From IMG/VR virus record IMGVR_UViG_2609459792_000007: a stretch of DNA of 64,000 nt. One strand, 5' to 3'. The notes beneath the pieces were generated by a model that saw only the letters and a list, made by a program, of their open reading frames with translations, did no database searches and had not been told where the DNA came from. Numbering within the stretch: the stretch's first letter is position 1; each line of letters opens with the position of its first letter. Positions 16,729 to 55,495 of the stretch are shown here, one piece after another. Source of the DNA: a virus (lineage: Duplodnaviria > Heunggongvirae > Uroviricota > Caudoviricetes). The position numbers and the translations under genes are program-made.

Positions 16729-16771
16729 CTAATACTAGAAAACAATTTGTTTAAAAAACAAAGGAAAGCAC

Positions 16772-18112
16772 ATGACCGAACTTTGCCATACAGGACGCGG
16801 GCTGTCCGAAGAGTTTGATGAAGATTTCCAGAACAGACTGACGGCATATTTTTGTCGTGATCACGAGTTTCTTACTCGTGCGGGAGATCTGGTTGTGCCT
16901 AGCCAATTTGCCAATGCGGCCAATGCCATATTGGTTAATATGGTTTCGGGCTATTACCGTATGTACAAGAGCGCGCCCTCTTCATCTGCAATTCTGGATA
17001 TGCTTAAGCGTGCGAAACGCGATAAGACTATCCGTGAGGAACTATTCGCCGATGTTGTTGCTGCGTTTAAGCGCATCCTTGCAGAAAAATTGTCCGATAC
17101 CTCGTACATGGTTGACCAGGTATCAACCTTCGCAAAAAGCGTAGCGTTTGATGATGCTCTGATTAAGGCTGCTGAACTGAAAGAGAAAGGCGACTTTCAG
17201 GGGGCGATGGCAATCATGGCCAAGGTTCAGCAGATTGGATCGAACGAAGCGACCGGAATCTATGACTACTACACCTCCGCAAGTGAGCGATTGAAAGCGC
17301 GTGAATATGAGGCTTCAGAGGAGTATGTGCCAAACAGCATTACAACTGGACTCCCTCTGCTCGATAGGTTGCTGTACCAAAAAGGCTGGGCGAAGCGTGA
17401 AATGGTGCTCTTCATGGGGTTCGCTAAATCCGGTAAATCGACCGCAATGGGTGAGTTTTCCATAAACGCAACGCTTGCTGGCTACAATGTTCTGTATCTC
17501 TCGCTGGAGGTTCACACCAACATTTTGTCCGACCGTTTTGATGCAAGATTGTCGGAGACGGAAATGTCCAAGTTGGTGGAACGGCGCGATGAAGTTCATC
17601 GTAAGTTGGCAGAGTTGGGAGCCTCTAAGGGGATTGGTAGTTTGTGGGTTGTTGAGCGTCCGTCAGGAAGTATGTCACCGGCAGATCTGGACCGTATGCT
17701 TAACAGCATGAAAGCCAACGGCATGGTGCCTGACATGGTTGTTGTCGACTACGCAGATTTGATGCGTGCCAGTTATGACCTTCGTGATGATCGCGCCAAC
17801 ATTCGTAGTATCTACACCGATTTACGTGCTCTTTATGACAAGCATAACGTTGCTGGTATCACGGCGTCGCAAACAAACCGTGAAGGTGGCGCGTCAGAAG
17901 TTGCCACAATGATGCACGCTGCCGACAACATCGAAAAAGTACGTATTGCTGACCTGGTAATAACGATCAACAAAACCGAAGAAGAAGAAGCGAAAGGAGA
18001 GGCTCGTCTCTACTTTGCTGGTTCGCGTAACCAGCAGGGAGGGATCAGCATTCGCGTTAAACAAAACCTCGAACAAATGCGCTTCATTGAGCGGATCTTA
18101 GACGTTACCTAA
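16772..18112 (+). CDS. DnaB-like replicative helicase
   Basis: 446 aa; C-terminal RecA-fold with Walker A GFAKSGKST and Walker B-like VVVDYADLM; conserved start context AAAGGAAAGCACATG. Confidence 0.7.
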   Translation: MTELCHTGRGLSEEFDEDFQNRLTAYFCRDHEFLTRAGDLVVPSQFANAANAILVNMVSGYYRMYKSAPSSSAILDMLKRAKRDKTIREELFADVVAAFKRILAEKLSDTSYMVDQVSTFAKSVAFDDALIKAAELKEKGDFQGAMAIMAKVQQIGSNEATGIYDYYTSASERLKAREYEASEEYVPNSITTGLPLLDRLLYQKGWAKREMVLFMGFAKSGKSTAMGEFSINATLAGYNVLYLSLEVHTNILSDRFDARLSETEMSKLVERRDEVHRKLAELGASKGIGSLWVVERPSGSMSPADLDRMLNSMKANGMVPDMVVVDYADLMRASYDLRDDRANIRSIYTDLRALYDKHNVAGITASQTNREGGASEVATMMHAADNIEKVRIADLVITINKTEEEEAKGEARLYFAGSRNQQGGISIRVKQNLEQMRFIERILDVT

Positions 18113-18193
18113 AAAATAAGCGTGGAGAACACCTCCACGCTTGATTCATTGGTGAAACAACTTTTCTTTTGCCAAACCACAAAAGAAAAACAC

Positions 18194-19375
18194 ATGAGCC
18201 TTTATGTTATATCAACATTTAGGTTGGTCACAATATTGCCTGTTAAAAGTGGAATTATCGTGAGCGAGCTGAAAGAGCTAATTACCGAATTAGATTTTGA
18301 ACAATGGTTGGACACTGAAGGTATCGTTTATCGACGTGGAGGCGTGAGTGCTCGCGGTCGTGAAGTGAATATCAAGGAGTGTCCGGTATGCGGCAGCTCC
18401 AACTGGAAGGTATATTTCAATCTGACCAGTGGCGTCGGCAAATGCTTTGCTGGTGATCATCCCGAAGAGATTCAGTTCAATAAGCTGGTCTTCCTCAAGC
18501 ACTACAGCGGTAAATCACGACGACAGTTCGAGGAATATGTGCAGAACGCTCTTCTTTCCCAGGGGTGGGCACCAAAGAAAGAAGAGCTAGTGCTTGCAAG
18601 CACAGTCGAGTTAGAGGGGCCAGTTGCACTCCCTCGTCATTACGAGCTTCCTATAGATGGCCGTCTTCCAGACTATCTGGTTGAACGAAACATATCACCT
18701 GAAATGGCAAAGTATTTTGACCTACGATACTGCGTCGAAGGCAAGCACGCTTATGTAGATCCGTATACAGATCAGGTAAAAGGGCAGATATTCGATATGC
18801 GAGTACTGATACCGGTTTACGATCTGGATGGGGTAATGAAGACATTTCAGGGACGAGACATTACCGGTACAGCAGAACGCCGCTACCTCTTTCCTATGCA
18901 GCTTCCAGCTTCAGGTAAATTTCTCTACAACGGCCATAATGCAGTCGGCAAACAGACTGTAGTTGTCTGTGAGGGTGCGTTCGATGTTATGGGGGTCAAA
19001 CGAGCTATTTTCGACGAAGAAACATTACGTGATTACGTGGAGCCAATAGGAACGTTCGGGATGCATCTATCTGGTAACACCACTCAGGATGCAGAAGATC
19101 AGTTAGGCGCGTTCCTGACGCTCAAGGCGCGTGGGTTACGTAATGTGATCATGATGTGGGATAGTGAAAAGCAAGCTATACGCAACACTATGGCCGCAGC
19201 CAGGCGACTGACCAGTATCGGTCTTAATGTCAAAGTTGCGTGTTTGGGTGAGGAAGGACTCGACCCGGGCGGTGCAACGCCAGAACAAATTATCAAAGCC
19301 TATTATCGGGCAAAACCGTATACCAAACAGTTGGAGTTGCAAAGCAAGGTTTTGGGCATTAAGGCGCTATCGTAA
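18194..19375 (+). CDS. DNA primase (zinc-binding, TOPRIM)
   Basis: Start moved from ORF-track 18122 to the ATG at 18194 preceded by AAAAGAAAAACACATG; CPVCGSS..C..H zinc-binding segment; TOPRIM-like VVCEGAFDVMG and MMWDSE. Confidence 0.6.
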   Translation: MSLYVISTFRLVTILPVKSGIIVSELKELITELDFEQWLDTEGIVYRRGGVSARGREVNIKECPVCGSSNWKVYFNLTSGVGKCFAGDHPEEIQFNKLVFLKHYSGKSRRQFEEYVQNALLSQGWAPKKEELVLASTVELEGPVALPRHYELPIDGRLPDYLVERNISPEMAKYFDLRYCVEGKHAYVDPYTDQVKGQIFDMRVLIPVYDLDGVMKTFQGRDITGTAERRYLFPMQLPASGKFLYNGHNAVGKQTVVVCEGAFDVMGVKRAIFDEETLRDYVEPIGTFGMHLSGNTTQDAEDQLGAFLTLKARGLRNVIMMWDSEKQAIRNTMAAARRLTSIGLNVKVACLGEEGLDPGGATPEQIIKAYYRAKPYTKQLELQSKVLGIKALS

Positions 19376-19450
19376 CAAGTGCCGCTAAAATAAGTAGATG
19401 ATTACTTATCTTTCTGTAAGAATACTTTCATCTGTTAGCTAGGAGTTGGT

Positions 19451-20233: not shown

Positions 20234-20289
20234 TCTCTCCGCGCGTCGTTTTTTTACGCAAACAATGATAGGTAAGTACAAGATTATTT

Positions 20290-20772
20290 ATGGCGATAGT
20301 TGTGAAAGCTGATTTGTCAAAAATCCCCTCTATTTCAGGAAATAATGGTTATTCACTTCGTTGTGAGGAAGTAAAGATAAACGGTGAGTCGGCATATTGC
20401 AGTTACTCCGTTTGCCAGCACACCATTCTTGCCTTCAAAGAAAACCGTCTTCCTCGAACTTCTTTCCAGTCGTGCGCAACCGCTATTAAAGCAGGCAAAT
20501 GCAAGGCGTTAAAAATGATGGTTGAAGAGATTCGTAAAGGAGAATCTCTGTATTTCGAAGATATGACCGCACTCATTAAGGAGGTTGAAGAACGGAATAA
20601 ACAAGCCAGAACTATAAAACGAAAACGTGACAGTGTAACGATTAATAGCATGGTTAAGAAGAGCGCCACATCACAAACAGCGATCACTGACGTGTATGCG
20701 GCGTTGCTTGAAGAAACAACAAAAGAAACACATGAGCAAATCGATCAACATATGGAGGCAAAACAACAATGA
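20290..20772 (+). CDS. hypothetical protein
   Basis: 160-aa ORF with several Cys; no motif recognised. Confidence 0.45.
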   Translation: MAIVVKADLSKIPSISGNNGYSLRCEEVKINGESAYCSYSVCQHTILAFKENRLPRTSFQSCATAIKAGKCKALKMMVEEIRKGESLYFEDMTALIKEVEERNKQARTIKRKRDSVTINSMVKKSATSQTAITDVYAALLEETTKETHEQIDQHMEAKQQ

Positions 20773-22091
20773 AAAAGTTGATCGCACTTAAGCATAAGCT
20801 GGACGAAATGAAAGCTATGGGAACCAATGCAAAAAAAGAGGCATTGGCCAACATGGATGACTTTGAACAAAGCATGGTTTCATTGATGCTCAACCCTTTC
20901 ATCCGTTTTGGGGTAAAGAAATACAAAGTGGCAGAGCCGCTTAGTGAGTCCGTCCCAAGTGACGAAAAAGCCATTGATGTACTGAATAAGCTGGCCTCTC
21001 GCGAGCTGACGGGGAACGCAGCAATAGTTGCTGTTGAGTCTATCGTAGCGTCAATGTGCGCCGATGGGCAGGACGTGTTCCGTCGTTTCCTCTTAAAAGA
21101 CCCGAAAGCAGGTGTTGGGATTAGCCTATGCAACAAGGTTTTTGAGAATCCCATTCCGAAATTCGAGGTGCAGCTGGCGTCACCGTATAAAGAAAAAGGC
21201 GACAAATACCCCTTCAAGCCAAATCCTAAAGCAAAATGGCCGATGATTGGCAGTCTTAAGCTCGATGGTTTGCGAGTAATTTGCGAGGTTATTGTTGACG
21301 AGGAAGAGGTTAACTTCCTTTCTCGTACTGGTAATCCAATCACGTCTCTCGATCACCTAAAGCCAGCAATGCTCGAATTAGGCAAACTTTCAGGCCACAA
21401 ACACATCTTCTTCGATGGTGAAGGAACAGCCGGTTCATTTAACCAGTCCGTATCTGCATTGCGCAAAAAGAACGTGCAGGCAATTGGCGCTATTTATCAT
21501 GTTTTCGACTTCTTCCTACCGGAATGGCGGGCACAGGCTAAATCCAAAGAGTATGCAAAGACAGGTATGAAGCTGAAAGAGCGCCTGGCTATGCTGGTGG
21601 CGTTGTTCAAAAACGATCGCAGTGAAGGCTACGGACAAGACATTCACCTGCATCCGTTCTATATCATCCATAGCCACGAAGATTTCATCGAACGCTTTAT
21701 GAAACGCCTGGACGATAACGAAGAAGGGGAGATGGGCAAAGATCCGAACTCTGTTTACGAGTTTAAACGTACCCGCAGCTGGTGGAAGTTAAAAGACGAA
21801 GATTCAGAAGATGGTGAAATTATCGACTTTGAGCCGGGCGACCCGGACTCTGGTTTTGCCAACACACTTGGAAAAATTGTTATTCGTCTTGAAAACGGCG
21901 TCATCGTTCGTGCGAGCGGCATTAAGCATAAATATCTGGACGAGATCTGGAACAACAAAGAGAAGTACCGTGGTCGTATTGTTGAGGTTCATTGTCACGA
22001 GAAAACGCCGGATGGCAGCTTACGCCACCCACGACTGAAATGGCCGCGTTGCTTACGCGATACAGAAGATCGAATCGGAGATAAAGAATGA
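20769..22091 (+). CDS. ATP-dependent DNA ligase
   Basis: 440 aa; adenylation motif SLKLDGLRV (KxDG). Confidence 0.7.
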   Translation: MKKLIALKHKLDEMKAMGTNAKKEALANMDDFEQSMVSLMLNPFIRFGVKKYKVAEPLSESVPSDEKAIDVLNKLASRELTGNAAIVAVESIVASMCADGQDVFRRFLLKDPKAGVGISLCNKVFENPIPKFEVQLASPYKEKGDKYPFKPNPKAKWPMIGSLKLDGLRVICEVIVDEEEVNFLSRTGNPITSLDHLKPAMLELGKLSGHKHIFFDGEGTAGSFNQSVSALRKKNVQAIGAIYHVFDFFLPEWRAQAKSKEYAKTGMKLKERLAMLVALFKNDRSEGYGQDIHLHPFYIIHSHEDFIERFMKRLDDNEEGEMGKDPNSVYEFKRTRSWWKLKDEDSEDGEIIDFEPGDPDSGFANTLGKIVIRLENGVIVRASGIKHKYLDEIWNNKEKYRGRIVEVHCHEKTPDGSLRHPRLKWPRCLRDTEDRIGDKE

Positions 22092-29419: not shown

Positions 29420-29514
29420 TTAAAACAGCCTTAATGATAAGTAACTACTTACCATAGTTAATGGTATATTTATATAAGAACTTGAACGCTCATTAGAGAA
29501 CAAAGGAAAAGCGC

Positions 29515-30750
29515 ATGACTACTACTGCACTGCAAAATGATAAAAATCCTTCTGATTACCTTGTTTGCAAGTGGTGCGGCAAATCATTTCACTATTTTAA
29601 GTCCCATGTAGCCAATGGTAATTGCGAGGGCATTCCTGAGTCAGTAAAAGATGCCGATCCTGACACCGTACTGAAAATGTACACAACGCAGTTTCCAGAT
29701 GAACCAACGCTATCGAAAAAGGCACTTGATGCAATTCAAGCTAAACGTGCCGAGCAAAAAAGCGAAATGGCGAAATCTTCTGGCTTGACCAGTAGCCCAG
29801 GCTACACAGGCACAGTTGAGTACAAGACAGATCTGGTCGCAGCTCACGAACTGCTAAACGTAACGGTGGAAGAACTCGGAACAAAACGTGGGACGCCGCT
29901 CATGGTTAGCGTCAACGTCAATACGCCGTATCCAGAGTTCGTTCCAGAAGTGAAGAAGGGCTACGTATATGGCGACTTCGAACTTATCAAAGATATTTTC
30001 ATGATGCTTGAACTTGGCATACCTGGCTATTTGTGGGGTCATGCAGGAACAGGCAAATCGTCATTGCCTACACAGCTATGTGCTTTGCTCAATCGTCCGT
30101 TGATCCGTGCCCAACATACAGCATCAATGGAAGAGGCACATGTTACGGGGCAAATTCTGGCGCGTGATGGCTCTACGTATTTCGAGCCTGGCTTGCTTGC
30201 GCTCGCAATGAAGCATGGCTGGGTTTACCTCGCGGATGAATACGACTTTGCGTTTCCACAAATTCTTGGCGTGTATCAGCCAGTGCTGGAAGGTGAGGCG
30301 TTGGTCATCAAAGAGGCAACTCCAGAATGGCGTCGCATTACTCCGCATGAACGGTTTGCTTTCATTGGCACTGGCAACACAAACGGTTCTGGTGATGAAA
30401 CCGGCTTGTACCAGGGTACAAACATCCAGAACGCCGCGAACTTTTCACGTTTTGGCATCGTTTCGAATGTGAAATACATGAGCAAAGAGGCAGAGATCAA
30501 CATGTTGATAAATGCCGGTATCGTGGATGAATACGCAGAAAAGATGGTTAAGTTTGCCGGTATCGTTCGCGATGGATACGAAGAACACCTTATCAGTCAG
30601 CCAATTGGCCCTCGTGAACTTTTGTTGTCGGCCAAGATTGGAATGATGCGAGGCGACTTTGTGACAGGTATTGAGCGTTCTTTCATTAACAAACTCCCTT
30701 CAGCTTCTGCACAAGCGGCTCGTGAAGTTGTTCAAAAAATATTTGGTTAA
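29515..30750 (+). CDS. CobS/MoxR-like AAA+ ATPase
   Basis: 411 aa; Walker A GHAGTGKSS, Walker B VYLADEYD; N-terminal Cys/His cluster (CKWCGKSFHYFKSH..C); immediately downstream of the vWA partner. Confidence 0.7.
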   Translation: MTTTALQNDKNPSDYLVCKWCGKSFHYFKSHVANGNCEGIPESVKDADPDTVLKMYTTQFPDEPTLSKKALDAIQAKRAEQKSEMAKSSGLTSSPGYTGTVEYKTDLVAAHELLNVTVEELGTKRGTPLMVSVNVNTPYPEFVPEVKKGYVYGDFELIKDIFMMLELGIPGYLWGHAGTGKSSLPTQLCALLNRPLIRAQHTASMEEAHVTGQILARDGSTYFEPGLLALAMKHGWVYLADEYDFAFPQILGVYQPVLEGEALVIKEATPEWRRITPHERFAFIGTGNTNGSGDETGLYQGTNIQNAANFSRFGIVSNVKYMSKEAEINMLINAGIVDEYAEKMVKFAGIVRDGYEEHLISQPIGPRELLLSAKIGMMRGDFVTGIERSFINKLPSASAQAAREVVQKIFG

Positions 30751-30829: not shown

Positions 30830-30929
30830 CGATTGTCACCAATCAGCAAAAGAAGTTGCGATTTCGATGCATGGGAAGTTCGTAGGCTTCCCCAATGACA
30901 AAATCAAAAAACCAGAAAGGTAAAAACAC

Positions 30930-34448: not shown

Positions 34449-34456
34449 TCCAATAA

Positions 34457-34484
34457 ACATGGCCTCTATGGCCATGTTTTCTCT
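34457..34484 (+). terminator. rho-independent terminator
   Basis: ACATGGCC-TCTAT-GGCCATGT followed by TTTCTCTT. Confidence 0.65.
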
Positions 34485-34573
34485 TATCCCCTCATATCCC
34501 CTATCCTCGAACTCCTTGCCTTATCATCACAATGATATAATCAATATAAGATGATAAGTAAAAAGGAAAGCAC

Positions 34574-35005: not shown

Positions 35006-35122
35006 TTTTTGATAGATAATAAGTAAGTACTGATCTATCATTTAACAGCTCGAAAGAGCCACGAATGAACGAAAGCCCAACGCGCATAGCGCCATCGGCC
35101 AAATCACAACAAGGAGAAACAC

Positions 35123-38498: not shown

Positions 38499-38513
38499 AC
38501 ACAAGGCGTCCAC

Positions 38514-38539
38514 AGGACGCCTTTTTTATCTCTTGAAAA
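38514..38539 (+). terminator. rho-independent terminator
   Basis: AGGCGTCC-ACAG-GGACGCCT followed by TTTTTT. Confidence 0.8.
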
Positions 38540-38590
38540 TATATAAGTACTTACTTATCATTTTCACATAACAACCACATAGGAAAACAC

Positions 38591-38791
38591 ATGATCAAAA
38601 TCTATCTATTGGCAGTAGCCACAGGCCTTTCAGTGGCTCTCATCTACGGATTACTGGTTCCGTCGCTGATTTCTGCAAAGAGTGATTTGGCCGTCATGCT
38701 TGGAGTTATTGTTGGTTTTGGCGCTCCAGTAATCGGTCTTATTGGTGGTCGTAAGTTTATTAACTCATTAATCAAAGCAAAGGGGAAATAA
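38591..38791 (+). CDS. small integral membrane protein
   Basis: 66 aa with two hydrophobic helices; immediately upstream of the SPFH lipoprotein gene. Confidence 0.5.
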   Translation: MIKIYLLAVATGLSVALIYGLLVPSLISAKSDLAVMLGVIVGFGAPVIGLIGGRKFINSLIKAKGK

Positions 38792-38794: not shown

Positions 38795-39625
38795 ATGAAG
38801 AAAGGTTTACTTGCAGTTGCTCTGGCGGCTATTTGCACAATGGGTCTTACTGGCTGTGATCGCGTAGAGCCTGGATACGTTGGCATCAAAGTAAACAAAT
38901 TAGGTGAAGACAAAGGGATTGGTGAAGTGGTTGGCGTTGGTCGCCAATGGACAGGTCTTAACACCGAACTTTACGTATTCCCGACCTTCAAACAAATGAA
39001 GACCTACGACGAGCCGTTCACATTCCAGATGAGTGACGGTACTGCTATTGGTCACAAAATTGGCGTTGCGTATCTGGTTAATCGTGACAAGGTAACGACG
39101 GTGTTCCAGACCTATCGCAAAGGCGTAGACGATATCACCGAATCAGATCTGCGTCAGAAAATTGCCGACTCTCTAAACCGTTTGGCCAGCCGTATGACCA
39201 CTGACTCATTTATCGACGGTGGTAAGGCACAATTGTTGGACAACGCACTGAAAGATATTCAGAAAGAGATGTCTCCGGTTGGTATTGAGGTACTGAGCCT
39301 GTCATGGGTTGGAAAGCCTGATTACCCAAAAACCGTCATTGAATCTATCAACGCCAAAGTAACGGCTAACCAGCGTACTCTGCAACGTCAGCAGGAAGTC
39401 GAACAGCGTAAAGCTGAGGCGAATATGCTGCGTGAACAGGCTAATGGTGAAGCTGATGCTATCCGTGCTCGTGCGCAAGCAGAAGCAGACGCCATTCGTC
39501 TGCGCGGTGAAGCTCTGCGTCAAAACCCGAACGTTATGGAACTGGAAGCCATCAATAAATGGAATGGCCAGTTACCGCAGTACATGACTCAAGGGGCTAA
39601 CACTCCTTTCATTACAGTGAAATAA
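38795..39625 (+). CDS. SPFH/band-7 domain lipoprotein
   Basis: 276 aa; signal peptide with lipobox L-T-G-C; central band-7-like region and C-terminal Ala/Glu/Arg-rich coiled coil. Confidence 0.6.
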   Translation: MKKGLLAVALAAICTMGLTGCDRVEPGYVGIKVNKLGEDKGIGEVVGVGRQWTGLNTELYVFPTFKQMKTYDEPFTFQMSDGTAIGHKIGVAYLVNRDKVTTVFQTYRKGVDDITESDLRQKIADSLNRLASRMTTDSFIDGGKAQLLDNALKDIQKEMSPVGIEVLSLSWVGKPDYPKTVIESINAKVTANQRTLQRQQEVEQRKAEANMLREQANGEADAIRARAQAEADAIRLRGEALRQNPNVMELEAINKWNGQLPQYMTQGANTPFITVK

Positions 39626-39643
39626 CTCTCTTTAAGAAGATCA

Positions 39644-43032: not shown

Positions 43033-43087
43033 TCGCCTATTCATAACTAACAAAATAAGTAAACACTAACCACAAAAGGAAAAACAC

Positions 43088-43363
43088 ATGAGAGTTTTAG
43101 TTCGAATCGTTACCAGCACTGTCTATGACGTGTTTCCGCTTTTTATGGTCAAAGCCGATGGTCTTAACGACGAAGAAACTGACGCGCTGATCCAGCGTAT
43201 TCTCGTTGAATATACAGGTCATGACGCTGATTCAGTGATGGTTGATGATGATGGTGTTTGTTGGCATAACGGCAACTGTTGGTACGTAGAAGAGACTCAA
43301 CAAATCAGTGATGAAGATGCCGCACATCTTGAGCGTATTTTAAGCATCAGCACTTTTGAGTGA
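43088..43363 (+). CDS. hypothetical protein
   Basis: 91-aa ORF; conserved start context AAAAGGAAAAACACATG. Confidence 0.5.
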   Translation: MRVLVRIVTSTVYDVFPLFMVKADGLNDEETDALIQRILVEYTGHDADSVMVDDDGVCWHNGNCWYVEETQQISDEDAAHLERILSISTFE

Positions 43364-44133: not shown

Positions 44134-44616
44134 AACCACTGCGGTGAGTAGTCTACTCACCGCATTCGTATCCAGCTCATTATCCACTGTAGTCAGTAAC
44201 AAAACCTTCCTACATATCTGCTAACCACTGTAGCGAGTAGACAGCCTTTCATTCGCATCAAACAACCACTATGGTGAGTATTGGAGTGAGATGTCCAGCG
44301 GGTATCCACTATGGTGAGTAAGCCTTTGCTGTTTTCAGTGGATATCCACTCGCCACAGTGGATACGCTCAAAGATGAGGGCGACAACAACCACTATAGAC
44401 AGTAAATTTTCCAAGATACCCAGTGACCACTAACCTCGCAGCCCTTGTTTCATCAGTGTTAGTGATCACTAACATTTAATTCAGTATTTGCATTCTACTG
44501 CCTACAGTGGTTATCAACAGATAACGATACTCACTATAGTGGATAGCGAATTACAGATATAAGTAAGGCTCACTACAGTGGATAGTGAGTCTTACTACTA
44601 ACTACAGTGGTTGGGC
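44134..44616. repeat. iteron array downstream of repA (incA-like)
   Basis: About 10 copies of a 9-bp core CCACTRTAG in both orientations, e.g. AACCACTGCGGTGAGTA, ATCCACTGTAGTCAGTA, CACTATAGTGGATAG, AACTACAGTGGTTGG. Confidence 0.8.
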
Positions 44617-45671
44617 TATTTGCGAGTCTTTGCCTTGCGCAACTCTTCGAGAAGCGCCAGTTCTTCTTTACTCAACATGACCATTTTGCCTTCTTTTTCG
44701 TCAGGCACAACGTCGATAATGTCATCTTGATTCTCATCTGGGAGGCTATATTCCGTCTCATCATTATCGATTTTTGTTGATATTTGTGCCTGGCGTAACT
44801 TTGGCCGCCTATAGTGGATGACGAAGTAGACCGAGTTTCCGCGCTTAACTTCCGTGTAATCGAGATATCCTATCTCTCGCAGCTGTTCCATAGCCTTTCT
44901 TACCGTCGCATTCTGAGTAATAGTGCGACTTGTCAGATTAAGTCTGGCGCGTAAACGGGCTAGTGATATTGGTGCCGGATCAGGCGGCAAACTTTCAATA
45001 AAAGTATAAAGCGCCTGAGCGGATTCTTTTCTTGAGAGTTCGTTTATAGCCCGGAGTTGCAGAAGAACCTTTTTGTCGAACTGGTAGAGTTCGAAAATCT
45101 TGGGATCTGCTTTCAGTTCGACCGTATCGTGCTTGACACTATATTTTGCCGTTTGCACAAGATGCGTTACGTAAAACTCATCAGAGCCTTTGCTACGGAA
45201 CGAGATGGTATTTGTGGCAATACGGCTTAGCGAACTGTCCAGGCGTTTGCGTAACTTCGCTGATGACCTGGCGGTCGGAATGCCACACAGCCTTACAAAC
45301 TCAACGAACGGCAACGTGACAGTATCGCCAACGACCTTGTGTTTGGCAAACGCGTGGATTATTCCCACCCACGTTTTAAAGTCGTTATCCATATCAAGCC
45401 GAAGGCCAGAGATCCTTATGTCTTCGTACCCTTCGGCTTTTGCCAGAGACAGCTGTTTGAGTTCAGCAGAGGCATCCATAGAGACCATTTGCCCCTTTCT
45501 TCCTCTGGATGTCGATTTCAGCGTCGGAACGAAGAGGCCCAGACGCATCAAAGCAACAGGCTGAACAGTGTTATTAGTGTTAGGAACCAACGTAACAACT
45601 TCGCCTGTCTTTTTATCTGTTTCTGAAAATGCTTCAACGATCGCTATGTTTTTATTGCCGTTTTCGCTCAT
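44616..45671 (-). CDS. repA: plasmid replication initiator RepA (P1 RepA-like)
   Basis: 351 aa; [49 protein letters not shown] and [12 protein letters not shown] parallel P1 RepA as recalled; flanked on both sides by iterons. Confidence 0.85.
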
Positions 45672-45715: not shown

Positions 45716-46330
45716 ATTACAGTGGATAGTAGCACTCATCACAGCGGTTATCCTACCGTCTATAGTGGTTTTTCTCCTCTCTATAGTGGTTGCTTTGCTC
45801 CCTATAGTGGATTGTTCGCTCTCTATAGTGGATATCGATCATGTCTGAAGGCAGATGGCACAACGGTTTGAGGTGGGCGGGGATCTTATTGGGTCTTTAT
45901 GGGTCTCTTTGGTTCTCTTTGTGATCTGAATTACTGGATCGGGCCTGTGGATAAAAATCAGAGAATTTCAAGAACAGGTAACTCTACTCTTCTGTGGATA
46001 TTTAAGGACATAAGAATCATGACTAAGAGTAGAGTTTAAAATATATCTATGTATATCAGTATGTTAATGAAGAATTAAGTCATTAAGTTATCCATAAAAG
46101 ACAATGTGCTCTACTCTCTACAGTGGATATATACAGCTCTCCAGAGTGGTTGTTTTACTCTTCATAGCGGTTATTCAGCTCTCTACAGAGGTTTCTTTGC
46201 TCTCCATAGTGGATGGCAACACCCTTTCAGACCAGTAACCGCAACGGCTAGAGGCGATCGGGGATCTCTTTGGATCTTCTATTTGATCTTACTTGGGATC
46301 TCTTATTTGGATCTATCCAGTGGATAACTG
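45716..46330. other. iteron-type replication origin upstream of repA (iterons, DnaA boxes, GATC cluster, AT-rich tract)
   Basis: About 11 iterons (CTCTATAGTGGTT-type) at roughly 20-bp spacing in two groups (45716-45836, 46119-46215); DnaA box TGTGGATAA at 45946-45954 and near-consensus at 45994-46002 and 46319-46327; six GATC within 46257-46313; AT-rich 46020-46100. Confidence 0.8.
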
Positions 46331-47059: not shown

Positions 47060-47313
47060 CCCTCCAGATCGTATATTGGCGTAGATAGAATCTACGCCCC
47101 CTCAAAATAGCTCTCATAGCGTTCTACAGTGATCCTGTCTTATTTTTAGTCATACAGACAAGCAAAGTTGCGCCACGATAAATAGGTATATACTTACTTA
47201 TAAATTTTGTATATTAAGGCGCTCGTTTCATTCCTAACATACCGTTATGCATAGTTGTTTACCTCCTCATTGCTCTTAGAATTTGTATCAAAATAACCAC
47301 AAAGGAAAAACAC

Positions 47314-48399
47314 ATGACTTTGCCATACGGCGTCATTTCTGACTGCCACTACCACAAATGGGATGCGTTCTCCACGACGAACGCTGAGGGGCTTAACTCC
47401 AGACTTGAAATACAGTTGGAAGCAACGAAAGAAGCAGCCATCGCCATGAAGAAGGCCGGTTGTAAGTACATGTTGGTTGCCGGTGATACATTTCACGTCC
47501 GAGGAACTGTGTCCCCTTCTGTTTTGCATTACGTAACTGAAACGTACAAGTGGATTATCAACGAGCTTGATCTGACAGTAGTAATGCTGGCCGGTAATCA
47601 CGATCTTGAAACCAACGATTCAGTATATAGCGCCAACGCAGCAGCATCGCTGAGTTCTATCGGCGTGGTAATCGTATGTGGCAAGCGCCCACACTCAATA
47701 AAAATTGGTGATGTGACTGTCCACCTGATTAGCTGGCGTAACAATCATGCGGAGCTTATCAGCGATCTGAAAGCATTACGTAAGAGCGTAGAAGGTGATA
47801 ATCATGACGTTGTTATCCATACATCCATTAACAAAGCCATTCCAACAATGCCTGACGTCGGTATCGATGCGCAGGAGTTAAAGGATATCGGCTTTCGTCT
47901 CGTGCTTAGTGGGCATTACCACAACCACAAAGAGGTCATTCCTGGAGTTATCAGTGTCGGTGCACTGACTCATCAAAATTGGGGAGATGTTGGATCTCTG
48001 GCTGGCTACATGATCGTAAACCCGGACGGCAGTTTCAGTCACTACGAAACCAGTGCGCCTAAATTCATTAACCTGGAAGATGATGTTGCTGATGACCAAA
48101 TTCGCGGCAACTACGTGCGTTTCCGCGCCTTAATTGAGAACGATGAAGAAGGCATTAAGTACCAGAACATCCTCAAAACAATGGGTGCAAAAGGTGTCGT
48201 GTGCAACTTCATCCGTAAGTCATCAATGATGGAAGGTACAGCCAGCACAACTGAAACCAGCAAAATCGATAGCCTTGGAGAGTCGGTATCTGCTTATTGC
48301 AAGATTGTCCACGATACTGACGGCGGATTTGATCTGAGCAAATTGGATATTTTGTGTCAGGAAATCCTCACCGAAGCGGAGAGTTCGGAGGCTGTGTGA
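47314..48399 (+). CDS. SbcD/Mre11-like nuclease (T4 gp47-like)
   Basis: 361 aa; metallophosphoesterase motifs VAGDTFH and LAGNHD; followed by SbcC-like ATPase gene. Confidence 0.75.
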   Translation: MTLPYGVISDCHYHKWDAFSTTNAEGLNSRLEIQLEATKEAAIAMKKAGCKYMLVAGDTFHVRGTVSPSVLHYVTETYKWIINELDLTVVMLAGNHDLETNDSVYSANAAASLSSIGVVIVCGKRPHSIKIGDVTVHLISWRNNHAELISDLKALRKSVEGDNHDVVIHTSINKAIPTMPDVGIDAQELKDIGFRLVLSGHYHNHKEVIPGVISVGALTHQNWGDVGSLAGYMIVNPDGSFSHYETSAPKFINLEDDVADDQIRGNYVRFRALIENDEEGIKYQNILKTMGAKGVVCNFIRKSSMMEGTASTTETSKIDSLGESVSAYCKIVHDTDGGFDLSKLDILCQEILTEAESSEAV

Positions 48400-48628: not shown

Positions 48629-50545
48629 ATGAAGTTTTTAAAGCTCCAGGTTGAGAATTTTATGGCTATCGCCAGCGCGGAGGTCGAGTTAGATCAGCGT
48701 GGTTTAGTGCTTATTCAGGGTGTTAATAGTGATGATAGTTCCGCATCAAGTAATGGCTCTGGAAAGTCAACTCTAATGAATAGCCTGATGTGGTGTCTTT
48801 ATGGCGAAACAGCTCATGGTGTGAAGGGTGACGATGTGTTGTCTACCGACCATGAAAAGAACTGTCGTGTTGCAGTAACCATCGAGGATGAAGGCAAGAG
48901 ATACGCAATCATTCGTCACCGTAAACACAAAGAGTTCAAAAATCGTCTTATCGTTCGTGGTGAAGATGGCGATATGACGAAAGGCAAAGATGCGCTGACG
49001 CAGGAGTTCGTCGAGCGTCTGATCGGTGCATCTAAAGAGGTTTTCATGGCTTCCATCTATGCGAGCCAAGAAGCTATGCCAGATTTACCTGGAATGTCCG
49101 ACAAAAACCTCAAAACCATCGTAGAAGAAGCCGCTGGCGTTGACAGACTGACACGCGCCTACGCTATTGCTCGTGAGCGAGCTAATGCAGCTGCCGCACG
49201 TATGGATGTGGTTAAAACCAAATTGGAGTCGACAATCTCGACCATTGAGGCAACACAGTCAGAAATTGAGTCAGCGAAAGCCTCCTCTGAATCATGGGAG
49301 CAAGAGCGTTCTAAACGTTATGACGATGCCCTGGCTGGGCTGGCCAGTGCCGAAGTTGAGTTAACGGAAGTTGAACTTGAGATCCGCACTCTTCCCGAAC
49401 AGATACGTGATACCGAGAAGGCAATCGAAAGTGAGCGCAAAAAGTTAGCCTCAAAAGAAGAACATGACGCCAAGTTGCTCAAAGTTCGTGGTGCGATAAC
49501 TGATATTCGGGCAAGCATCAAAGCTACAGAAAATAGTCAGGCTGATGCAATGAACCGCGCGCGTAATTTTAAGACCAAAGCAGAAGAGGTTGGTACTAAA
49601 GTGGGATCACCATGCCCTACTTGTGGCAAAGCCTACTGCGAAGAAGATCTATCAACGGTGAAGGAGAGTTTCATTGAACAAGCACGTCAGGAAATTGGTC
49701 AGGCGAAGACACTTGCAGAGGCAATGGCTAAACACAAAACGAATCTTGAGAAAGCGTTAAGCATTGAGTCTGCCCTTGTTAAAACGACACCTGATGTAAC
49801 GGCTATCATTGCCCGGATTGAAGAGCTTACGAAACAACTCTCATCTTTGCGTCATCGTGAGAAGGAGGTTGTTGCTATTGAGTCTCTTGTGACTCGTGCT
49901 CGTACTGAGGTCGATCGTATATCAAAAGAGATTAATCCGTTTATTGCTCTTATCGCCAGACACGAAGATAACTTGGTATCCAGTAAGTCTACCTTCAAGT
50001 CCTTAAAAGATGAGTTGAAGGCTATTCAGGAACAAACGTTGCTATTGGAAAAAGCTCGTCAGGTCTACTCTCCTGCCGGGGTGCGTTCTCATATTTTGAC
50101 GTCTGTTACGCCTTTCCTGAATACACGCACTGCCGAGTATCTCAATACGTTGTCTGACGGGAATATTACTGCTGAGTGGTCGACGATGGATGTCACTAAA
50201 AAAGGTGAGTATCGCGACAAATTCAACATTAGTGTGCAGAAGAAAGGTTCAAGTAAGTCGTTCCAGACCCTCTCTGGTGGTGAGAAGCGGAAGGTTCGCA
50301 TTGCGTGTTCTTTGGCATTGCAGGATCTGGTTAGTAACCGGGCGAGTAAAAACATCGATTTGTTTATCGGCGACGAAATTGACGATGCACTCGATACAGC
50401 CGGTCTTGAACGCCTCATGGGTATTCTGGAGTCCAAAGCTCGCGAGCGAGGTACTGTGCTGATTATCTCCCATAAAGAGATGAAGTCATGGTTCCGGGAA
50501 ACTATTACGCTGGAAGTTAAAGAGGGGCGCAGCTATGTCGTTTAA
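48629..50545 (+). CDS. SbcC/Rad50-like ATPase (T4 gp46-like)
   Basis: 638 aa; Walker A NGSGKST, long coiled coil with CPTCGKAYC zinc-hook-like motif, ABC signature LSGGEKRKV and Walker B LFIGDEID. Confidence 0.8.
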   Translation: MKFLKLQVENFMAIASAEVELDQRGLVLIQGVNSDDSSASSNGSGKSTLMNSLMWCLYGETAHGVKGDDVLSTDHEKNCRVAVTIEDEGKRYAIIRHRKHKEFKNRLIVRGEDGDMTKGKDALTQEFVERLIGASKEVFMASIYASQEAMPDLPGMSDKNLKTIVEEAAGVDRLTRAYAIARERANAAAARMDVVKTKLESTISTIEATQSEIESAKASSESWEQERSKRYDDALAGLASAEVELTEVELEIRTLPEQIRDTEKAIESERKKLASKEEHDAKLLKVRGAITDIRASIKATENSQADAMNRARNFKTKAEEVGTKVGSPCPTCGKAYCEEDLSTVKESFIEQARQEIGQAKTLAEAMAKHKTNLEKALSIESALVKTTPDVTAIIARIEELTKQLSSLRHREKEVVAIESLVTRARTEVDRISKEINPFIALIARHEDNLVSSKSTFKSLKDELKAIQEQTLLLEKARQVYSPAGVRSHILTSVTPFLNTRTAEYLNTLSDGNITAEWSTMDVTKKGEYRDKFNISVQKKGSSKSFQTLSGGEKRKVRIACSLALQDLVSNRASKNIDLFIGDEIDDALDTAGLERLMGILESKARERGTVLIISHKEMKSWFRETITLEVKEGRSYVV

Positions 50546-51278
50546 ATTAAGCCGCTCGCAGTTTTTGCAGGTATTTGCAGTGATGCAGTCGATAAAACTG
50601 ATCAATGGGCATACTTCCAATGGTGCGGCTCCACGTATTCTGTGGGGCAGCAACAATATTGACGGAGTACAATTCGCCGCGTTGCTTGGTCTAATATCCG
50701 AGACGCCATTGATGCAAAGTTTGAAATCACTACCACCTGGATGTATTGCGCCGATCCTGATTAATCCTTTTGTTGAGGGGGGATATCTTCCCAACGTCGG
50801 GCCTGGGTTTATTGCATCCCATGAAACTGAAGATCTTAACATTAATAGCGAAGGGTTCTTTGGGGGAATGGGTGCGCATCACTGTATGGCTTTCACGAAC
50901 CTTATTCGACTTGCCAATAAGCGGGTGGATAGTTTGGCATCGCCAGGTGATGCTTTTACTGGTTTCCTTATCCAAAGGAGGGATAAAAAGTACAGTGCGG
51001 ACAAACTACAGTTTGTTGGTAAGTATGGAGAAATGGTAGAAATCGAACTTCAGCTCCCTCATGTTTTAGCAAACGATAGTGCAGACAGTCGGAGGCTATT
51101 GGGCATCATGCGTCATTTCATAGCAAGTGGTGTTAAACATGCCGCAGATAAACGTGTCACGCAGGAAAATGAGTATTCAGACTTTGCAAACTATCCCCAA
51201 CCAACGTTGCAAACGGCAATAGTAGCCAATTCGTTGGAGGCGAGATTATTGGAAAACCCTATATGGGGAACATGGTAA
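50535..51278 (+). CDS. hypothetical protein
   Basis: 247-aa ORF; no motif recognised. Confidence 0.5.
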   Translation: MSFKLSRSQFLQVFAVMQSIKLINGHTSNGAAPRILWGSNNIDGVQFAALLGLISETPLMQSLKSLPPGCIAPILINPFVEGGYLPNVGPGFIASHETEDLNINSEGFFGGMGAHHCMAFTNLIRLANKRVDSLASPGDAFTGFLIQRRDKKYSADKLQFVGKYGEMVEIELQLPHVLANDSADSRRLLGIMRHFIASGVKHAADKRVTQENEYSDFANYPQPTLQTAIVANSLEARLLENPIWGTW

Positions 51279-51287
51279 GGAGACTAT

Positions 51288-51857
51288 ATGAGTAAAAAAA
51301 TCAGCGTAGTTGGTGTTGATCCCTCAATGAGCAACTTTGGGCTTGCTGTGGGCACTTTAGACCTTGAGACGGACGAACTTGAGATTCACGGCCTTACTCT
51401 TGTTGAGACTAAAGCGGGGAGTAACAAAAAGACCGTTCGTGTGAACAGTGACGATCTGCGCCGCGCCAGTGAAATATGGCGTGTTGCGAAGCCAATCATT
51501 GATAAGGCAAATATGGTTTTTTGTGAGCTACCGGTTGGGAGCCAAAACTCTCGTTCGCAGACGTCTTACGGTATTTGTATCGGTGTACTTGCGTGTGTGG
51601 ATAAGCCATTGATCCAGGTTACTCCAAACGAAATCAAGCATTTTGTCGGCAATAAACTTACTACATCGAAAGAAGAGATTATCCAGTGGGCTACGAAAAA
51701 ACACCCTAAAGCACCGTGGCTGCGTCGTAAGCAATCTGGACAGGATGTTCTCGTGAACAAAAACGAACATTTGGCTGATGCGGTGGCTGCCATCCATACC
51801 GGTATGCAAACAGATCAGTTCCGCCAGGTGCGCGATGTTCTTAAGTCTCTCATTTGA
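51288..51857 (+). CDS. RuvC-like Holliday junction resolvase (putative)
   Basis: 189 aa; VVGVDPSMSNFGLAV parallels RuvC ILGIDPG..TGYGV; acidic FCELP; C-terminal EHLADAVAAIHTG parallels RuvC DAADALAIAITH. Confidence 0.55.
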   Translation: MSKKISVVGVDPSMSNFGLAVGTLDLETDELEIHGLTLVETKAGSNKKTVRVNSDDLRRASEIWRVAKPIIDKANMVFCELPVGSQNSRSQTSYGICIGVLACVDKPLIQVTPNEIKHFVGNKLTTSKEEIIQWATKKHPKAPWLRRKQSGQDVLVNKNEHLADAVAAIHTGMQTDQFRQVRDVLKSLI

Positions 51858-51891
51858 TTTCATTGATAGGTAAGTGCTTATCTATTAACAT

Positions 51892-51922
51892 GGGCCACTA
51901 TATTTAGTGGCCCTCTTTATTT
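51892..51922 (+). terminator. terminator-like hairpin upstream of nrdA
   Basis: GGGCCACT-ATATTT-AGTGGCCC followed by TCTTTATTT. Confidence 0.55.
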
Positions 51923-51930
51923 GGTGATAC

Positions 51931-54246
51931 ATGATAAGCATCGTAAAACGTAACGGCCAAACAGAGCCGTTATCCGAAGAAAAATACAACCGCGTCGTAA
52001 TGTATGGCGTAGAAGGCATTCGTGGTGTAAGCGCATCCGCTGTAGCAATGGGAGCTGCGGCCAGCATTTTTGATGGGATTACCACCAGCCAGTTGCATGA
52101 GGCTTTGGTTAAATCTGCCGCTGATTTGATCTCACCAGAAGCACCAAATTACTCACAGGTGGCTGCCCGCCTGAACATTTTTAAAATCCGCAAAGATGCC
52201 TTCGGTCGTTACGACTATCCGAACTTCTACCAACACATTGTCAAGAACGTTAACAAGGGCGTTTATGACAAGGATTTGCTGACACATTATTCGTTTGAAG
52301 AGATCGAAGAACTCGGCAATTACATTAAGCCGAAACGTGACGATCTTTTTGGCTATGCAGCTACGGTGCAGTTGCAAAGCAAATACCTCGTTCAAAACCG
52401 TGTTACTGGTGAGATTCATGAGGGGCCGCAACATATCTATATGCTGGTAGGCATGTGTCTGTTCCAGAATTGGGAAGACGACTGCGCTGGCAAAACACGT
52501 ATGGAGATGGTCAAAGGTTTCTATGACGTTACAAGTACGTTCAAACTGTCTCTGCCCACACCAATCATGGCCGGCGTCCGTACTCCAACCCGTCAGTTCT
52601 CCAGTTGTGTGCTGATTGAGTCTGGCGATAGTCTGAAAGGGATTAGTGCAGCTTCAGCCGCAATTATCGACTACGTTTCACGTCGTGCTGGAATTGGTAT
52701 TGGTTTTGGCCGTATCCGTGCGCTGGGCAGCGAGATCCGCAATGGTGAAGCCACCCATACTGGAGTTATTCCATTCCTGAAGCATTTCCAGACGGCTGTT
52801 AAATCTTGTTCGCAAGGTGGTGTTCGTGGTGGCGCAGCAACAGCGTTTTACCCGATCTGGCATCTTGAAGTTGAAAGTCTGCTGGTGGTGAAAAATAACC
52901 GTGGTATTGATGAAAACCGCGTTCGCCATCTTGATTACGGCGTCATGAGTAACCGTCTAATGTACCGTCGACTCGTCAGAAGCGAGAACATCACTCTGTT
53001 CAGCCCGCATGATGTGCCTGATATGTACGAAGCCTTCTTCACAGACCAGGAGCTGTTTGAAAAGCTGTACCATAAATACGAAGCCGATGATTCAATTCGC
53101 AAGAAGTCAGTACCTGCCATTGAGCTGTTCTCATCTCTGATGCAGGAACGAGCGTCCACGGGCCGAATTTATATTGCGAACGTCGATCATATTAACGAGC
53201 ATGGCGCTTTCATTCCTGCTCTTGCACCTGTTCGCCAGTCAAACCTGTGCATGGAGATCACTCTACCCACTCGTCCACTGGCATTTACCGACGACCCGAA
53301 CGGTGAGATCGCGCTATGCACTTTATCCGCTTTTAACCTCGGAGCCATCCGTTCACTGGAGTCTCTTAAAGAGGTGGCGTTCTATGCCGTTGCTGCACTG
53401 GATTCGTTACTGGATTATCAAGACTATCCGATGGAGGCAGCCGAAGTGCCTGCCAAAGCTCGTCGTAGCTTGGGAATTGGTGTAACCAACTTTGCTTATT
53501 ACCTGGCAAAGAATGGCGTTCGTTATTCTGATACCGCTGGCAATAAACTGGTGCATGAAACGTTCGAAGCTATCCAGTATTACCTTCTTGATGCCAGCTG
53601 CCGACTTGCTGAAGCAAAAGGTGAGTGTGACTGGTTTGAGCAGACCAAGTACGCAATTGGTCAGTTGCCGATCGACCATTACCGTTCTTCATTAGACGAA
53701 AGTGGCGAAACCAACTTTGAGTTAAAGATGCCGTGGGAAGAACTGCGTGAACGTATTGCAAAATACGGCCTTCGCAACTCCACACTGACGGCACAAATGC
53801 CATGCGAGACTTCCAGCCAGATCACTAATTCCACCAACGGCATCGAACCGCCTCGTGGACCGGTGTCGGTGAAATCTTCTAAGGACGGCATCGTTAAGAT
53901 GGTCGTGCCTGAGTTTGAAAAACTGAAGGAACAGTATGAATACCTGTGGGATATGCCGGACAACCGCGGCTATCTGACAAAGGTGGCGATCATCCAGAAG
54001 TTCTTTGACCAGGCTATTTCAGCCAATACCAACTATGACCCTTCTCGCTTTGAAGGCGATAAAGTCCCAATGATGACGCTACTGTCAGATTTGCTTCTCG
54101 CCTACAAGATGGGAGTTAAAACGCTTTACTACCACAACACCAGAGATGGGGCAGGAAAGCGTGATGACGACGAACCGCAGAATCCACTGACGCAAGCTGT
54201 AGCCGTCGAGCCAGAAGATGAGTGCGACGGAGCCTGCAAAATCTGA
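51931..54246 (+). CDS. nrdA: ribonucleoside-diphosphate reductase large subunit (class Ia)
   Basis: 771 aa; near-colinear with E. coli NrdA as recalled (KYLVQNRVTGEI, SCSQGGVRGGAAT, NLC.EI, C-terminal ..CDGACKI). Confidence 0.95.
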   Translation: MISIVKRNGQTEPLSEEKYNRVVMYGVEGIRGVSASAVAMGAAASIFDGITTSQLHEALVKSAADLISPEAPNYSQVAARLNIFKIRKDAFGRYDYPNFYQHIVKNVNKGVYDKDLLTHYSFEEIEELGNYIKPKRDDLFGYAATVQLQSKYLVQNRVTGEIHEGPQHIYMLVGMCLFQNWEDDCAGKTRMEMVKGFYDVTSTFKLSLPTPIMAGVRTPTRQFSSCVLIESGDSLKGISAASAAIIDYVSRRAGIGIGFGRIRALGSEIRNGEATHTGVIPFLKHFQTAVKSCSQGGVRGGAATAFYPIWHLEVESLLVVKNNRGIDENRVRHLDYGVMSNRLMYRRLVRSENITLFSPHDVPDMYEAFFTDQELFEKLYHKYEADDSIRKKSVPAIELFSSLMQERASTGRIYIANVDHINEHGAFIPALAPVRQSNLCMEITLPTRPLAFTDDPNGEIALCTLSAFNLGAIRSLESLKEVAFYAVAALDSLLDYQDYPMEAAEVPAKARRSLGIGVTNFAYYLAKNGVRYSDTAGNKLVHETFEAIQYYLLDASCRLAEAKGECDWFEQTKYAIGQLPIDHYRSSLDESGETNFELKMPWEELRERIAKYGLRNSTLTAQMPCETSSQITNSTNGIEPPRGPVSVKSSKDGIVKMVVPEFEKLKEQYEYLWDMPDNRGYLTKVAIIQKFFDQAISANTNYDPSRFEGDKVPMMTLLSDLLLAYKMGVKTLYYHNTRDGAGKRDDDEPQNPLTQAVAVEPEDECDGACKI

Positions 54247-54352
54247 CATATGGTGGGGGATATCCCCACCTTCTCTTTGATTTGTAAGCCTTGTTTAAAC
54301 ATATAAGATAACAACTTGTTTAAACGCACCAAAAAAGAAAAAGGAAAAACAC

Positions 54353-55495
54353 ATGTCATATTCAACGTTCCGTTTGGGTGCTAATGATGCAACCAAAGAG
54401 CCTATGTTCCTCGGACAATCTGTCAACGTGGCACGTTACGATCAGCAAAAATACCGTGATTTTGAAAAGTTGATTGAACGTCAATTGTCTTTCTTCTGGC
54501 GGCCGGAAGAAGTTGATATTTCGAGCGATCGTATCGACTTCAACACGAAGCTGCGGGACCACGAACGTCACATTTTTCTGAGCAATCTCCGTTATCAAAC
54601 GTTACTCGATTCAGTTCAGGGACGTAGCCCAAATGCAACGCTGCTGCCGCTTATCTCTATTCCTGAACTGGAAACGTGGGTTGAAACATGGTCTTTCTCT
54701 GAGACTATCCATAGCCGCAGCTACACCCACATTATTCGTGGCATGGTGGACGATCCGAGCATTGTTTTTGACGGTATTGTTACGGATGAAGAAATCATCA
54801 ACCGAGCGATCAGTATCTCTGCTGAATATGACAGGCTTTATGGGATGACCTGCGAGCGCCAGTCGTTAGGTGAGAAGGAGTTTGAACGTCTGTACGTAAA
54901 TGAATATGGCTGGGAGCCATACCCTTTGCACCGTCAGCTTTTCCGCACGTTGGTGTCCATTAATGCGCTTGAGGCGATCCGTTTCTATGTAAGTTTTGCA
55001 TGTACGTTTGCCTTTGGCGAACGGAAGTTGCTTGAGGGTAACACCAAAATTATGCGCTTTATTGCCCGTGATGAAGCTCTGCATTGCGAAGGAACTGAAC
55101 GCATGATCCGCTTCATGCGTACCGGTCGCGAAGGTTTATTGTGGAAAGAGATTGCTGCTGATGAAGAAAACGTCATTTACGACACCATGAAATCAGTCGC
55201 CGAACAAGAAATGAACTGGGCAGACTATCTCTTCAAAGACGGTTCGATGATTGGTTTAAACGCGGATATTCTCAAAACCTATGTAAAATACCGCACCAAT
55301 CTGGCTATGAATCGTCTTGGCCTGAAGGCTTTATTTCCAGAGGTTACCACCGATCCGCTGGTCTGGATGAACAAGTGGTTGTTAACCGACACACTGCAAA
55401 TTGCACCACAAGAGGCAGAGCAAAGCACATATCTGGTAGGTCAGATCGATTCTACCGTGGATAAGGCTTCTCTAAGCCAGTTTGCTGACCTGTAA
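54353..55495 (+). CDS. nrdB: ribonucleoside-diphosphate reductase small subunit (class Ia)
   Basis: 380 aa; near-colinear with E. coli NrdB as recalled ([59 protein letters not shown]). Confidence 0.95.

Follow-up and report, generated by a model that had tools for sequence, protein, structure and literature searches.

We found that about a dozen genes of an SSU5-type phage-plasmid of Escherichia coli begin in nearly the same extended context, in which AAGGA is followed by a run of A and then by CAC abutting the ATG. The genes lie in a stretch of 64,000 nucleotides (nt) of viral DNA (Caudoviricetes; IMG/VR record IMGVR_UViG_2609459792_000007), hereafter the window, in which tail genes are followed by a block for replication, recombination and nucleotide metabolism, with nearly all genes on the + strand. 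When compared by megablast, the part from 29 to 49 kb showed 96.6% identity to the pLF82 phage-plasmid, Escherichia phage Cyrano (OV696614.1), and 80% to Salmonella phage SSU5. The motif is an extended, regulon-specific start context and has apparently not been described before: its string was found in no paper of the searchable literature, and the paper on Cyrano and LF82 (PMC9928086) does not mention it. Our best reading is that SSU5-type phage-plasmids would use it for independently translated, rightward genes of replication, recombination and nucleotide metabolism, i.e., for genes of the early or middle class.

Form and occurrence of the motif

The exact 16-mer AAAGGAAAAACACATG occurs three times in the window (43075-43090, 47301-47316 and 54340-54355, at the starts 43088, 47314 and 54353). 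With up to two mismatches there are 7 sites against 0.12 expected, a number reached in none of 100 shuffles. The commonest 9-mer of the window is AAACACATG. The + (gene) strand has all 8 of its copies and the - strand has none (0.92 expected over both strands), and each copy sits at an ATG that opens an open reading frame (ORF). According to the ORF list, the motif ATG is the first possible start of its ORF at 16772, 29515, 30930, 34574, 35123, 38591, 43088, 47314 and 54353, and the annotations of Cyrano and SSU5 agree with the motif-ATG starts, the primase excepted. At every site except the primase (AAGAAAA), the distance from the end of the Shine-Dalgarno (SD) element (AAGGA, AGGA or GGAG) to the ATG is 8-9 nt; in relatives it is 6-10 nt. 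Five sites share a longer form of about 22 nt, AACCACA(A)AGGAAAAACACATG. There is no U between the SD and the AUG, this part of the site consisting of A and C only.

The ten start regions named in the initial annotation were all recovered broadly as described, and two more CACATG gene starts were found beyond that list, at 12561 and 15988, with SDs of other types. The shared purine-rich leader held up. The CACATG itself, which had been called invariant, is not, since 29515 reads CGCATG, and the context is less uniform than had been stated. For example, 16772 and 34574 carry AAAGGAAAGCACATG, which is one base shorter, has G at -4 and ends in ...GGAAAGCACATG; 38591 reads ATAGGAAAACACATG; 35123 has GGAG; and 18194 is without GG (AAAAGAAAAACACATG) and lies 72 nt inside a longer ORF opening at GTG 18122. 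Readings of the motif as a -1 frameshift slippery site or as a DnaA box were dropped on inspection. Complementarity of 9 out of 10 bases between AAAACACAUG and an internal, base-paired segment of 16S ribosomal RNA (rRNA), CAUGUGGUUU, is presumably a matter of chance (about 0.05-0.3 expected).

Genes with the motif and control genes

In the annotation of Cyrano the motif genes encode a DnaB-like helicase, a primase, a cobS-like protein, the alpha subunit of DNA polymerase III (Pol III alpha), UvsY, a gp32-like single-stranded DNA-binding protein (SSB), a small membrane protein, a protein of 91 amino acids (aa), SbcD and the beta subunit of ribonucleotide reductase (RNR), a coherent, rightward and non-structural set devoted to DNA metabolism. 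An examination of start contexts over a complete genome, as the initial annotation had proposed, was run on Cyrano: CAC was the top triplet at -3 to -1 and preceded 13 of 123 starts, against 1.35% expected (p=1.5e-8), and it preceded none of the 26 structural and lysis genes. Among the non-structural genes, with the near-variants CGC and TAC counted, the motif was found at 15 of the 55 that are separated from the gene upstream by 40 nt or more, and at 0 of the 28 with a shorter gap. All 15 have at least 43 nt of intergenic DNA upstream and, because the sites are intergenic, the motif is not a by-product of upstream coding. The genes expressed in Cyrano lysogens, which include the repressor, toxin-antitoxins, CYRAN_43 and others (PMC9928086), do not overlap with the motif genes at all, and the leftward repA and repressor genes are without the motif.

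The motif was neither common in the host sample nor absent from the orthologues of relatives, which in SSU5 and at about 200 IMG/VR loci keep it. CAC preceded the start in 0 of 70 annotated genes of Escherichia coli K-12, a sample that is rich in ribosomal-protein operons and is not the whole genome, and in 0 of 72 phage lambda genes; the difference between 13/123 in Cyrano and 0/142 in these two controls was significant by Fisher's test (p=3e-5). Similarly, AAACACATG occurred on the gene strand 8 times in the window, 11 times in Cyrano and 10 times in SSU5, and not at all in the E. coli and lambda controls. The telling measure here is the number of motif copies per genome, not the presence of the 16-mer. 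When the exact AAAGGAAAAACACATG was scanned against IMG/VR and GTDB genomes, the matches listed were single copies in unrelated taxa, evidently due to chance, and the scan was uninformative on E. coli. With the lambdoid Ead/Ea22 homologues the C-terminal third alone is in common, so that their starts are not orthologous.

Conservation and turnover in relatives

For relatives, we compared the surroundings of the gp32, RNR-beta and helicase genes at about 240 IMG/VR loci, with orthologous starts anchored by tblastn. Identity was taken as the mean pairwise value over distinct orthologous upstream sequences, for ten motif genes and for twelve control genes of the same genomes. The initial annotation had stated that conservation extends beyond the SD, and this was borne out. 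In the motif genes identity was 0.80-0.91 at -1 to -6, 0.66-0.72 over the SD and 0.5-0.6 further upstream, whereas the control genes showed the usual, opposite pattern (0.65-0.69 over the SD and 0.49-0.63 in the spacer). These comparisons argue that positions -1 to -6 of the motif genes are under purifying selection.

SSU5 keeps ...ACAC-ATG at the starts of the helicase, primase, cobS, polymerase, membrane-protein, SbcD and RNR-beta genes and at further genes. In the membrane-protein gene, GGAAA(A)CACATG was found in 17 of 17 distinct upstream sequences, with protein identity down to 57% and the adjacent leader diverged. In the RNR-beta gene, GG[GA]AAA(0-2)CAC is retained and the remaining leader is unrelated between clades. 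In the helicase gene the SD spacing shifts (GGA+6 vs GGA+10) and ACAC still adjoins the ATG, and in the gp32-like SSB gene the entire leader is conserved, with C or T at -3. Turnover was also observed. One clade has lost the motif at SbcD and RNR beta, and a distant clade (about 80% identity in RNR beta) has it on other genes (RuvC-, hyp76- and hyp78-like); at the RuvC start of this clade, a 16-nt replacement has produced a 19-nt identity with the helicase start. In three clades A[AG]CACATG occurred on the gene strand at 0.65-2.5 copies per 10 kb, its density on the other strand being about 0. Mean motif identity was 0.77 between orthologous sites, 0.69 between non-orthologous sites within the window and 0.63 across genomes; concerted evolution within genomes was considered and set aside, its signal (0.69 vs 0.63) being weak.

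Predicted structure

In Cyrano the predicted unpaired probability at -18 to +6 was 0.60 for motif genes and 0.47 for other genes (p=5e-4), and individual folds of the motif leaders agree with low predicted structure. By E. coli standards, AAGGA-A(n) makes a good start site, and A-rich spacers gave the highest expression in E. coli screens with randomised spacers (PMC7264876).

Individual start sites

All sites of the window lie on the + strand. The DnaB-like helicase starts at AACAAAGGAAAGCAC-ATG (16757-16774), with G at -4, and CAC was present in 18 of 18 distinct orthologous upstream sequences. The primase site, AACCACAAAAGAAAAACAC-ATG (18175-18196), has an SD without GG and is kept in 6 distinct relatives. 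Its ATG at 18194, with the motif and a conserved N-terminus, is probably the true start of the primase in place of the annotated GTG. In Cyrano and SSU5 the primase is annotated from a GTG 66 nt downstream of this ATG, and its start appears to be mis-annotated in the records examined. The same region (18122-18260) contains an 8-bp hairpin (UUCUUUUG/CAAAAGAA, z=-3.8) that pairs with the purine tract just upstream. At the cobS-like gene, AAAGGAAAAGCGC-ATG (29502-29517), CGC replaces CAC, and GGAAAA(A)CAC is found in SSU5 and other clades. Pol III alpha starts at AAGGTAAAAACAC-ATG (30917-30932), a motif that also contains the stop codon (TAA) of a small ORF upstream; each of 8 distinct relatives has CAC. 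The UvsY-like gene starts at AAAAGGAAAGCAC-ATG (34560-34576) and has an extended -10 (TGATATAAT) upstream; its motif is limited to the window-like clade (4 of 41 distinct upstream sequences).

The gp32-like SSB starts at ATCACAACAAGGAGAAACAC-ATG (35104-35125), where position -3 is C in the window clade and T in most others. Its leader (34998-35125) stands out, 125 nt being almost invariant over 38 distinct relatives, far above other leaders. It contains the small hairpins GCUC-GAAA-GAGC and GCGC-AUA-GCGC, the z-score of its fold is only -1.9, and by analogy with T4 gene 32 it could be autoregulatory. The 66-aa membrane protein starts at AACCACATAGGAAAACAC-ATG (38571-38593), with GGAAA(A)CACATG invariant in relatives, and the acidic 91-aa protein at AACCACAAAAGGAAAAACAC-ATG (43069-43090), for which the SSU5 orthologue has GGAGAAAACAC-ATG. 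At the start of the SbcD-like nuclease, AACCACAAAGGAAAAACAC-ATG (47295-47316), CAC was found in 11 and [CT]AC in 13 of 16 distinct relatives; at that of RNR beta, AAAGGAAAAACAC-ATG (54340-54355), 17 of 26 distinct relatives have GG[GA]AAA(0-2)CAC.

CAC with a different SD precedes a hypothetical gene of 246 aa at CAGGTGAGCCAC-ATG (15973-15990; CAC in 24 of 35 distinct relatives) and a gene of 127 aa at TAAGGTGGACAC-ATG (12546-12563). One further candidate, ACAAAAGAAACAC-ATG (20717-20734), is kept in three clades. It precedes the ligase ATG by 37 nt, and the ORF that it opens has only 19 codons; this site, with its ATG at 20732, falls within the coding sequence of the gene upstream of the ligase. 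In each of the three clades the motif-type start AAAGAAACACATG (window 20717-20792; SSU5 about 39575-39630) opens a short ORF of 5-19 codons before the ligase. The SSU5 ORF overlaps its neighbours at both ends, with its ATG on the stop codon of the gene before it (ATGA) and its stop codon on the ligase ATG (TAATG). Such an ORF might act as a "bridge" that couples translation, or it might have arisen from the coding sequence by coincidence.

Upstream repeats and gene neighbourhood

In phylogenetic footprints, terminator-like and promoter-like elements upstream of the motif are conserved among relatives. For both UvsY and the membrane protein, the promoter-like site is immediately preceded by a terminator-like, G+C-rich hairpin with a T-run (34455-34479 and 38503-38523); the site of the membrane-protein gene is TTGAAA-17-TATCAT. 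This succession of hairpin and promoter-like site suggests that motif genes head their own transcription units. An inverted repeat, TA(A/G)GTA-N(2-8)-TAC(C/T)TA, occurs about 17 times in the window, including positions 5485, 10869, 15957, 19391, 22914, 29438, 35020, 38544, 43383, 47179, 51867, 56446, 61420 and 63635. Those that we inspected are intergenic and mostly precede a gene start by 13-180 nt; the genes so preceded include late genes in Cyrano. At the membrane-protein and gp32 promoters the repeat fills the spacer between -35 and -10 and does not vary among relatives. We consider it a candidate for an operator or for a shared promoter element. Besides, the palindrome aGAAAACAAnTTGTTTaa is found at 13811, 16741, 27280, 39693 and 54310, with a degenerate copy at 18156; it is located 18-37 nt before the starts of ParA, the helicase, the cobT-like gene, o39721 and RNR beta and also before several genes of SSU5 and Cyrano, is conserved in relatives and is a candidate for a second operator class.

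Several differences from Cyrano were observed in the neighbourhood. A hicAB toxin-antitoxin pair lies between the Pol III alpha and UvsY genes of Cyrano (50263-52241) and is missing from the window (34448-34574). The RecA-like gene encodes 357 aa in the window and is 2340 nt long in Cyrano, a size gap that suggests an insertion in Cyrano. The window has four tRNA genes (Asn, Tyr, Thr and Ser), and three are annotated in Cyrano. Iteron-like repeats are present on both sides of the leftward repA gene (44616-45671), at 44336-44576 and 45720-45823. Near this gene, CTATAGTGG occurs four times with a 21-bp spacing (45760-45823), and copies of CAGTGGATA flank it on either side.

Possible functions of the motif

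Our tentative preference is to read the motif as a translation-initiation region, a ribosome-loading module specific to this lineage and kept by selection, with a CAC core acting at the level of RNA. AAGGA, placed 8-9 nt ahead of the AUG, would pair with the 3' terminus of 16S rRNA, and the oligo-A, almost purely A/C leader would neither fold on itself nor offer false start codons, so that the site would stay open. CAC abutting the AUG would be a separately conserved core that is read as RNA. Purifying selection would keep the module, which may have been copied or have re-evolved onto different genes across lineages. We infer that the motif sets translation efficiency and that CAC matters for it. 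Several observations weigh against this explanation. CAC is not an evident E. coli optimum, as C in the spacer was unfavourable in the screens (PMC7264876) and U is favoured at -1 via pairing with A37 of the initiator tRNA (PMC10018350). The absence of CAC from all 70 E. coli and all 72 lambda genes implies that the host ribosome alone does not select it. Moreover, G or U is tolerated at -4 and -5 but CAC is held, so an A/C-only, structure-free leader does not account for a position-specific CAC core. As CAC is unexplained by known E. coli preferences, a trans-acting reader remains plausible.

Such a reader is central to the proposal that the (A)AACAC-AUG core, alone or together with AACCACA, serves as a translational operator through which a phage or host RNA-binding protein co-regulates about a dozen early or middle mRNAs, as an analogue and not a homologue of T4 RegA. 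We regard this, the main rival, as possible, though rather unlikely. It would fit the fixed position of CAC relative to the AUG while SD spacing varies, a spacer more conserved than the SD, a triplet that is no E. coli optimum and is absent from the host sample and lambda, the T4-like gene set (UvsY, gp32, SbcCD, RNR, helicase/primase and polymerase), the gain of the motif on other genes in other lineages and the roughly 22 nt common to five sites. A RegA-like repressor site, as suggested in the initial annotation, was not supported: the site is A/C-rich rather than AU-rich, and no RegA homologue was found, either by Pfam (Translat_reg) among 20 hypothetical window proteins, the other ORFs not all having been scanned, or by a tblastn search with T4 RegA, for which the best match in the window, Cyrano or SSU5 had an E of 2.4. 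Nor did the small proteins examined supply a candidate RNA-binding protein. The 91-aa protein (43088) was ruled out as a self-regulating repressor, being strongly acidic though its own mRNA has a perfect motif, and the small basic proteins that were listed had no informative features. The motif is also not kept at UvsY and has decayed at SbcD and RNR beta in one clade. A narrower proposal, which we consider unlikely, is that (A)AACAC-AUG is a regulon-wide operator read by a phage protein unrelated to RegA and gates translation of the T4-like genes, perhaps when the element passes from plasmid maintenance to lytic growth.

It is also conceivable, if improbable, that the similarity is mainly historical, leaders or start cassettes of 16-20 nt having spread by recombination or gene conversion, with the motif as a microhomology or "linker" and CAC without a function of its own. 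In favour of this are the replacement at the RuvC start of the distant clade and the following: identical 16- and 17-mers recur within a genome and differ between genomes, and non-orthologous identity is slightly higher within the window than across genomes. However, orthologous identity exceeds within-genome identity, and CAC persists at the membrane-protein, helicase and polymerase genes although divergence has randomised the adjacent leader, which requires selection and not only history. Quite improbable, in our view, is a target of a small RNA (sRNA) seed, of Hfq (ARN repeats AGG-AAA-AAC) or of CsrA (ACA..GGA), the motif resembling the consensus sites of both proteins. The sites are indeed predicted to be single-stranded, but no complementary, trans-encoded RNA was found in the window, Cyrano or SSU5 by a pattern search allowing G-U wobble, a negative that does not extend to host sRNAs. 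When the whole Cyrano genome was scanned with RNAduplex, the 14 distinct best sites were all the cis-antisense strand of motif-type starts, and Rfam gave tRNAs only. Each short leader has a single GGA and no hairpin presenting it, and readers of this kind would not explain CAC.

The initial annotation had also raised the possibility of a promoter or leader element, which we now hold to be very improbable. If conservation were transcriptional, the motif would be part of a shared promoter or initially transcribed region; in some genes there is a conserved -10-like TATCA(A/T) 24-38 nt before the ATG, and AACCACA...CAC could then be a whole short 5' untranslated region starting from a CA. Yet -10/-35 features are lacking in the motif, which directly adjoins the ATG and keeps strict register with the start codon rather than with anything further upstream: conserved promoter-like blocks lie about 23 nt (membrane-protein gene), about 75 nt (gp32) and more than 100 nt (SbcD) upstream of it, and promoter-like matches were no more frequent than in shuffles. 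Scarcely credible is a role of the ACA before the AUG in letting MazF-type, ACA-specific toxins trim the mRNAs to near-leaderless forms under stress. ACA does occupy -4 to -2 at most sites, but the same leaders hold further ACA sites upstream, and the MazF leaderless-mRNA model is itself disputed.

Significance and comparison with known systems

Phage-plasmids of the SSU5 type are found widely in E. coli, Salmonella and Klebsiella, in some cases with resistance genes on board. The regulation of their genomes of about 100 kb is hardly understood. A start element that is common to a dozen lytic DNA-metabolism genes, conserved above the SD and unlike host contexts provides a testable handle on post-transcriptional control. 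In practice, the motif marks true start codons, such as the probable one of the primase, and offers a compact natural leader for studying how the three bases before the AUG affect initiation in E. coli.

Among known systems, ribosome-binding sites controlled by antisense RNA (P1 c4 type) differ in that no complementary trans-encoded RNA was found in this element, host sRNAs not having been searched. CsrA leaders have at least two GGA 10-63 nt apart, typically in hairpin loops, and the motif leaders have one. The T7 gene 10 epsilon, AU-rich S1-binding elements and CA-repeat enhancers are likewise short, unstructured elements near the start, and they raise initiation; unlike the motif, they precede the SD or follow the AUG, and their distance to the start codon is not fixed. 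The operators of T4 RegA and the T4 early-start consensus resemble the motif in that there too many early DNA-metabolism genes have a common sequence overlapping the start codon, and the T4 set is partly homologous to the motif gene set (UvsY, gp32, gp46/47-like SbcCD and NrdAB). RegA represses translation by binding an AU-rich element that overlaps the AUG, in contrast to the A/C-rich motif, and no RegA homologue was found beside the latter. The autogenous operator of T4 gene 32 has its likeness in the gp32-like SSB leader, which is about 75 nt long, exceptionally conserved and ends in the motif; this long conservation is specific to the SSB, whereas other motif genes keep only the last 10-20 nt. 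With ordinary E. coli SD initiation regions the motif shares AAGGA 8-9 nt before the AUG, an oligo-A spacer, a predicted lack of structure and location at true gene starts. It differs from them in having C, which scored as unfavourable in published screens, at -1 and -3, and in a spacer and last three bases that are conserved above the SD and common to unrelated genes.

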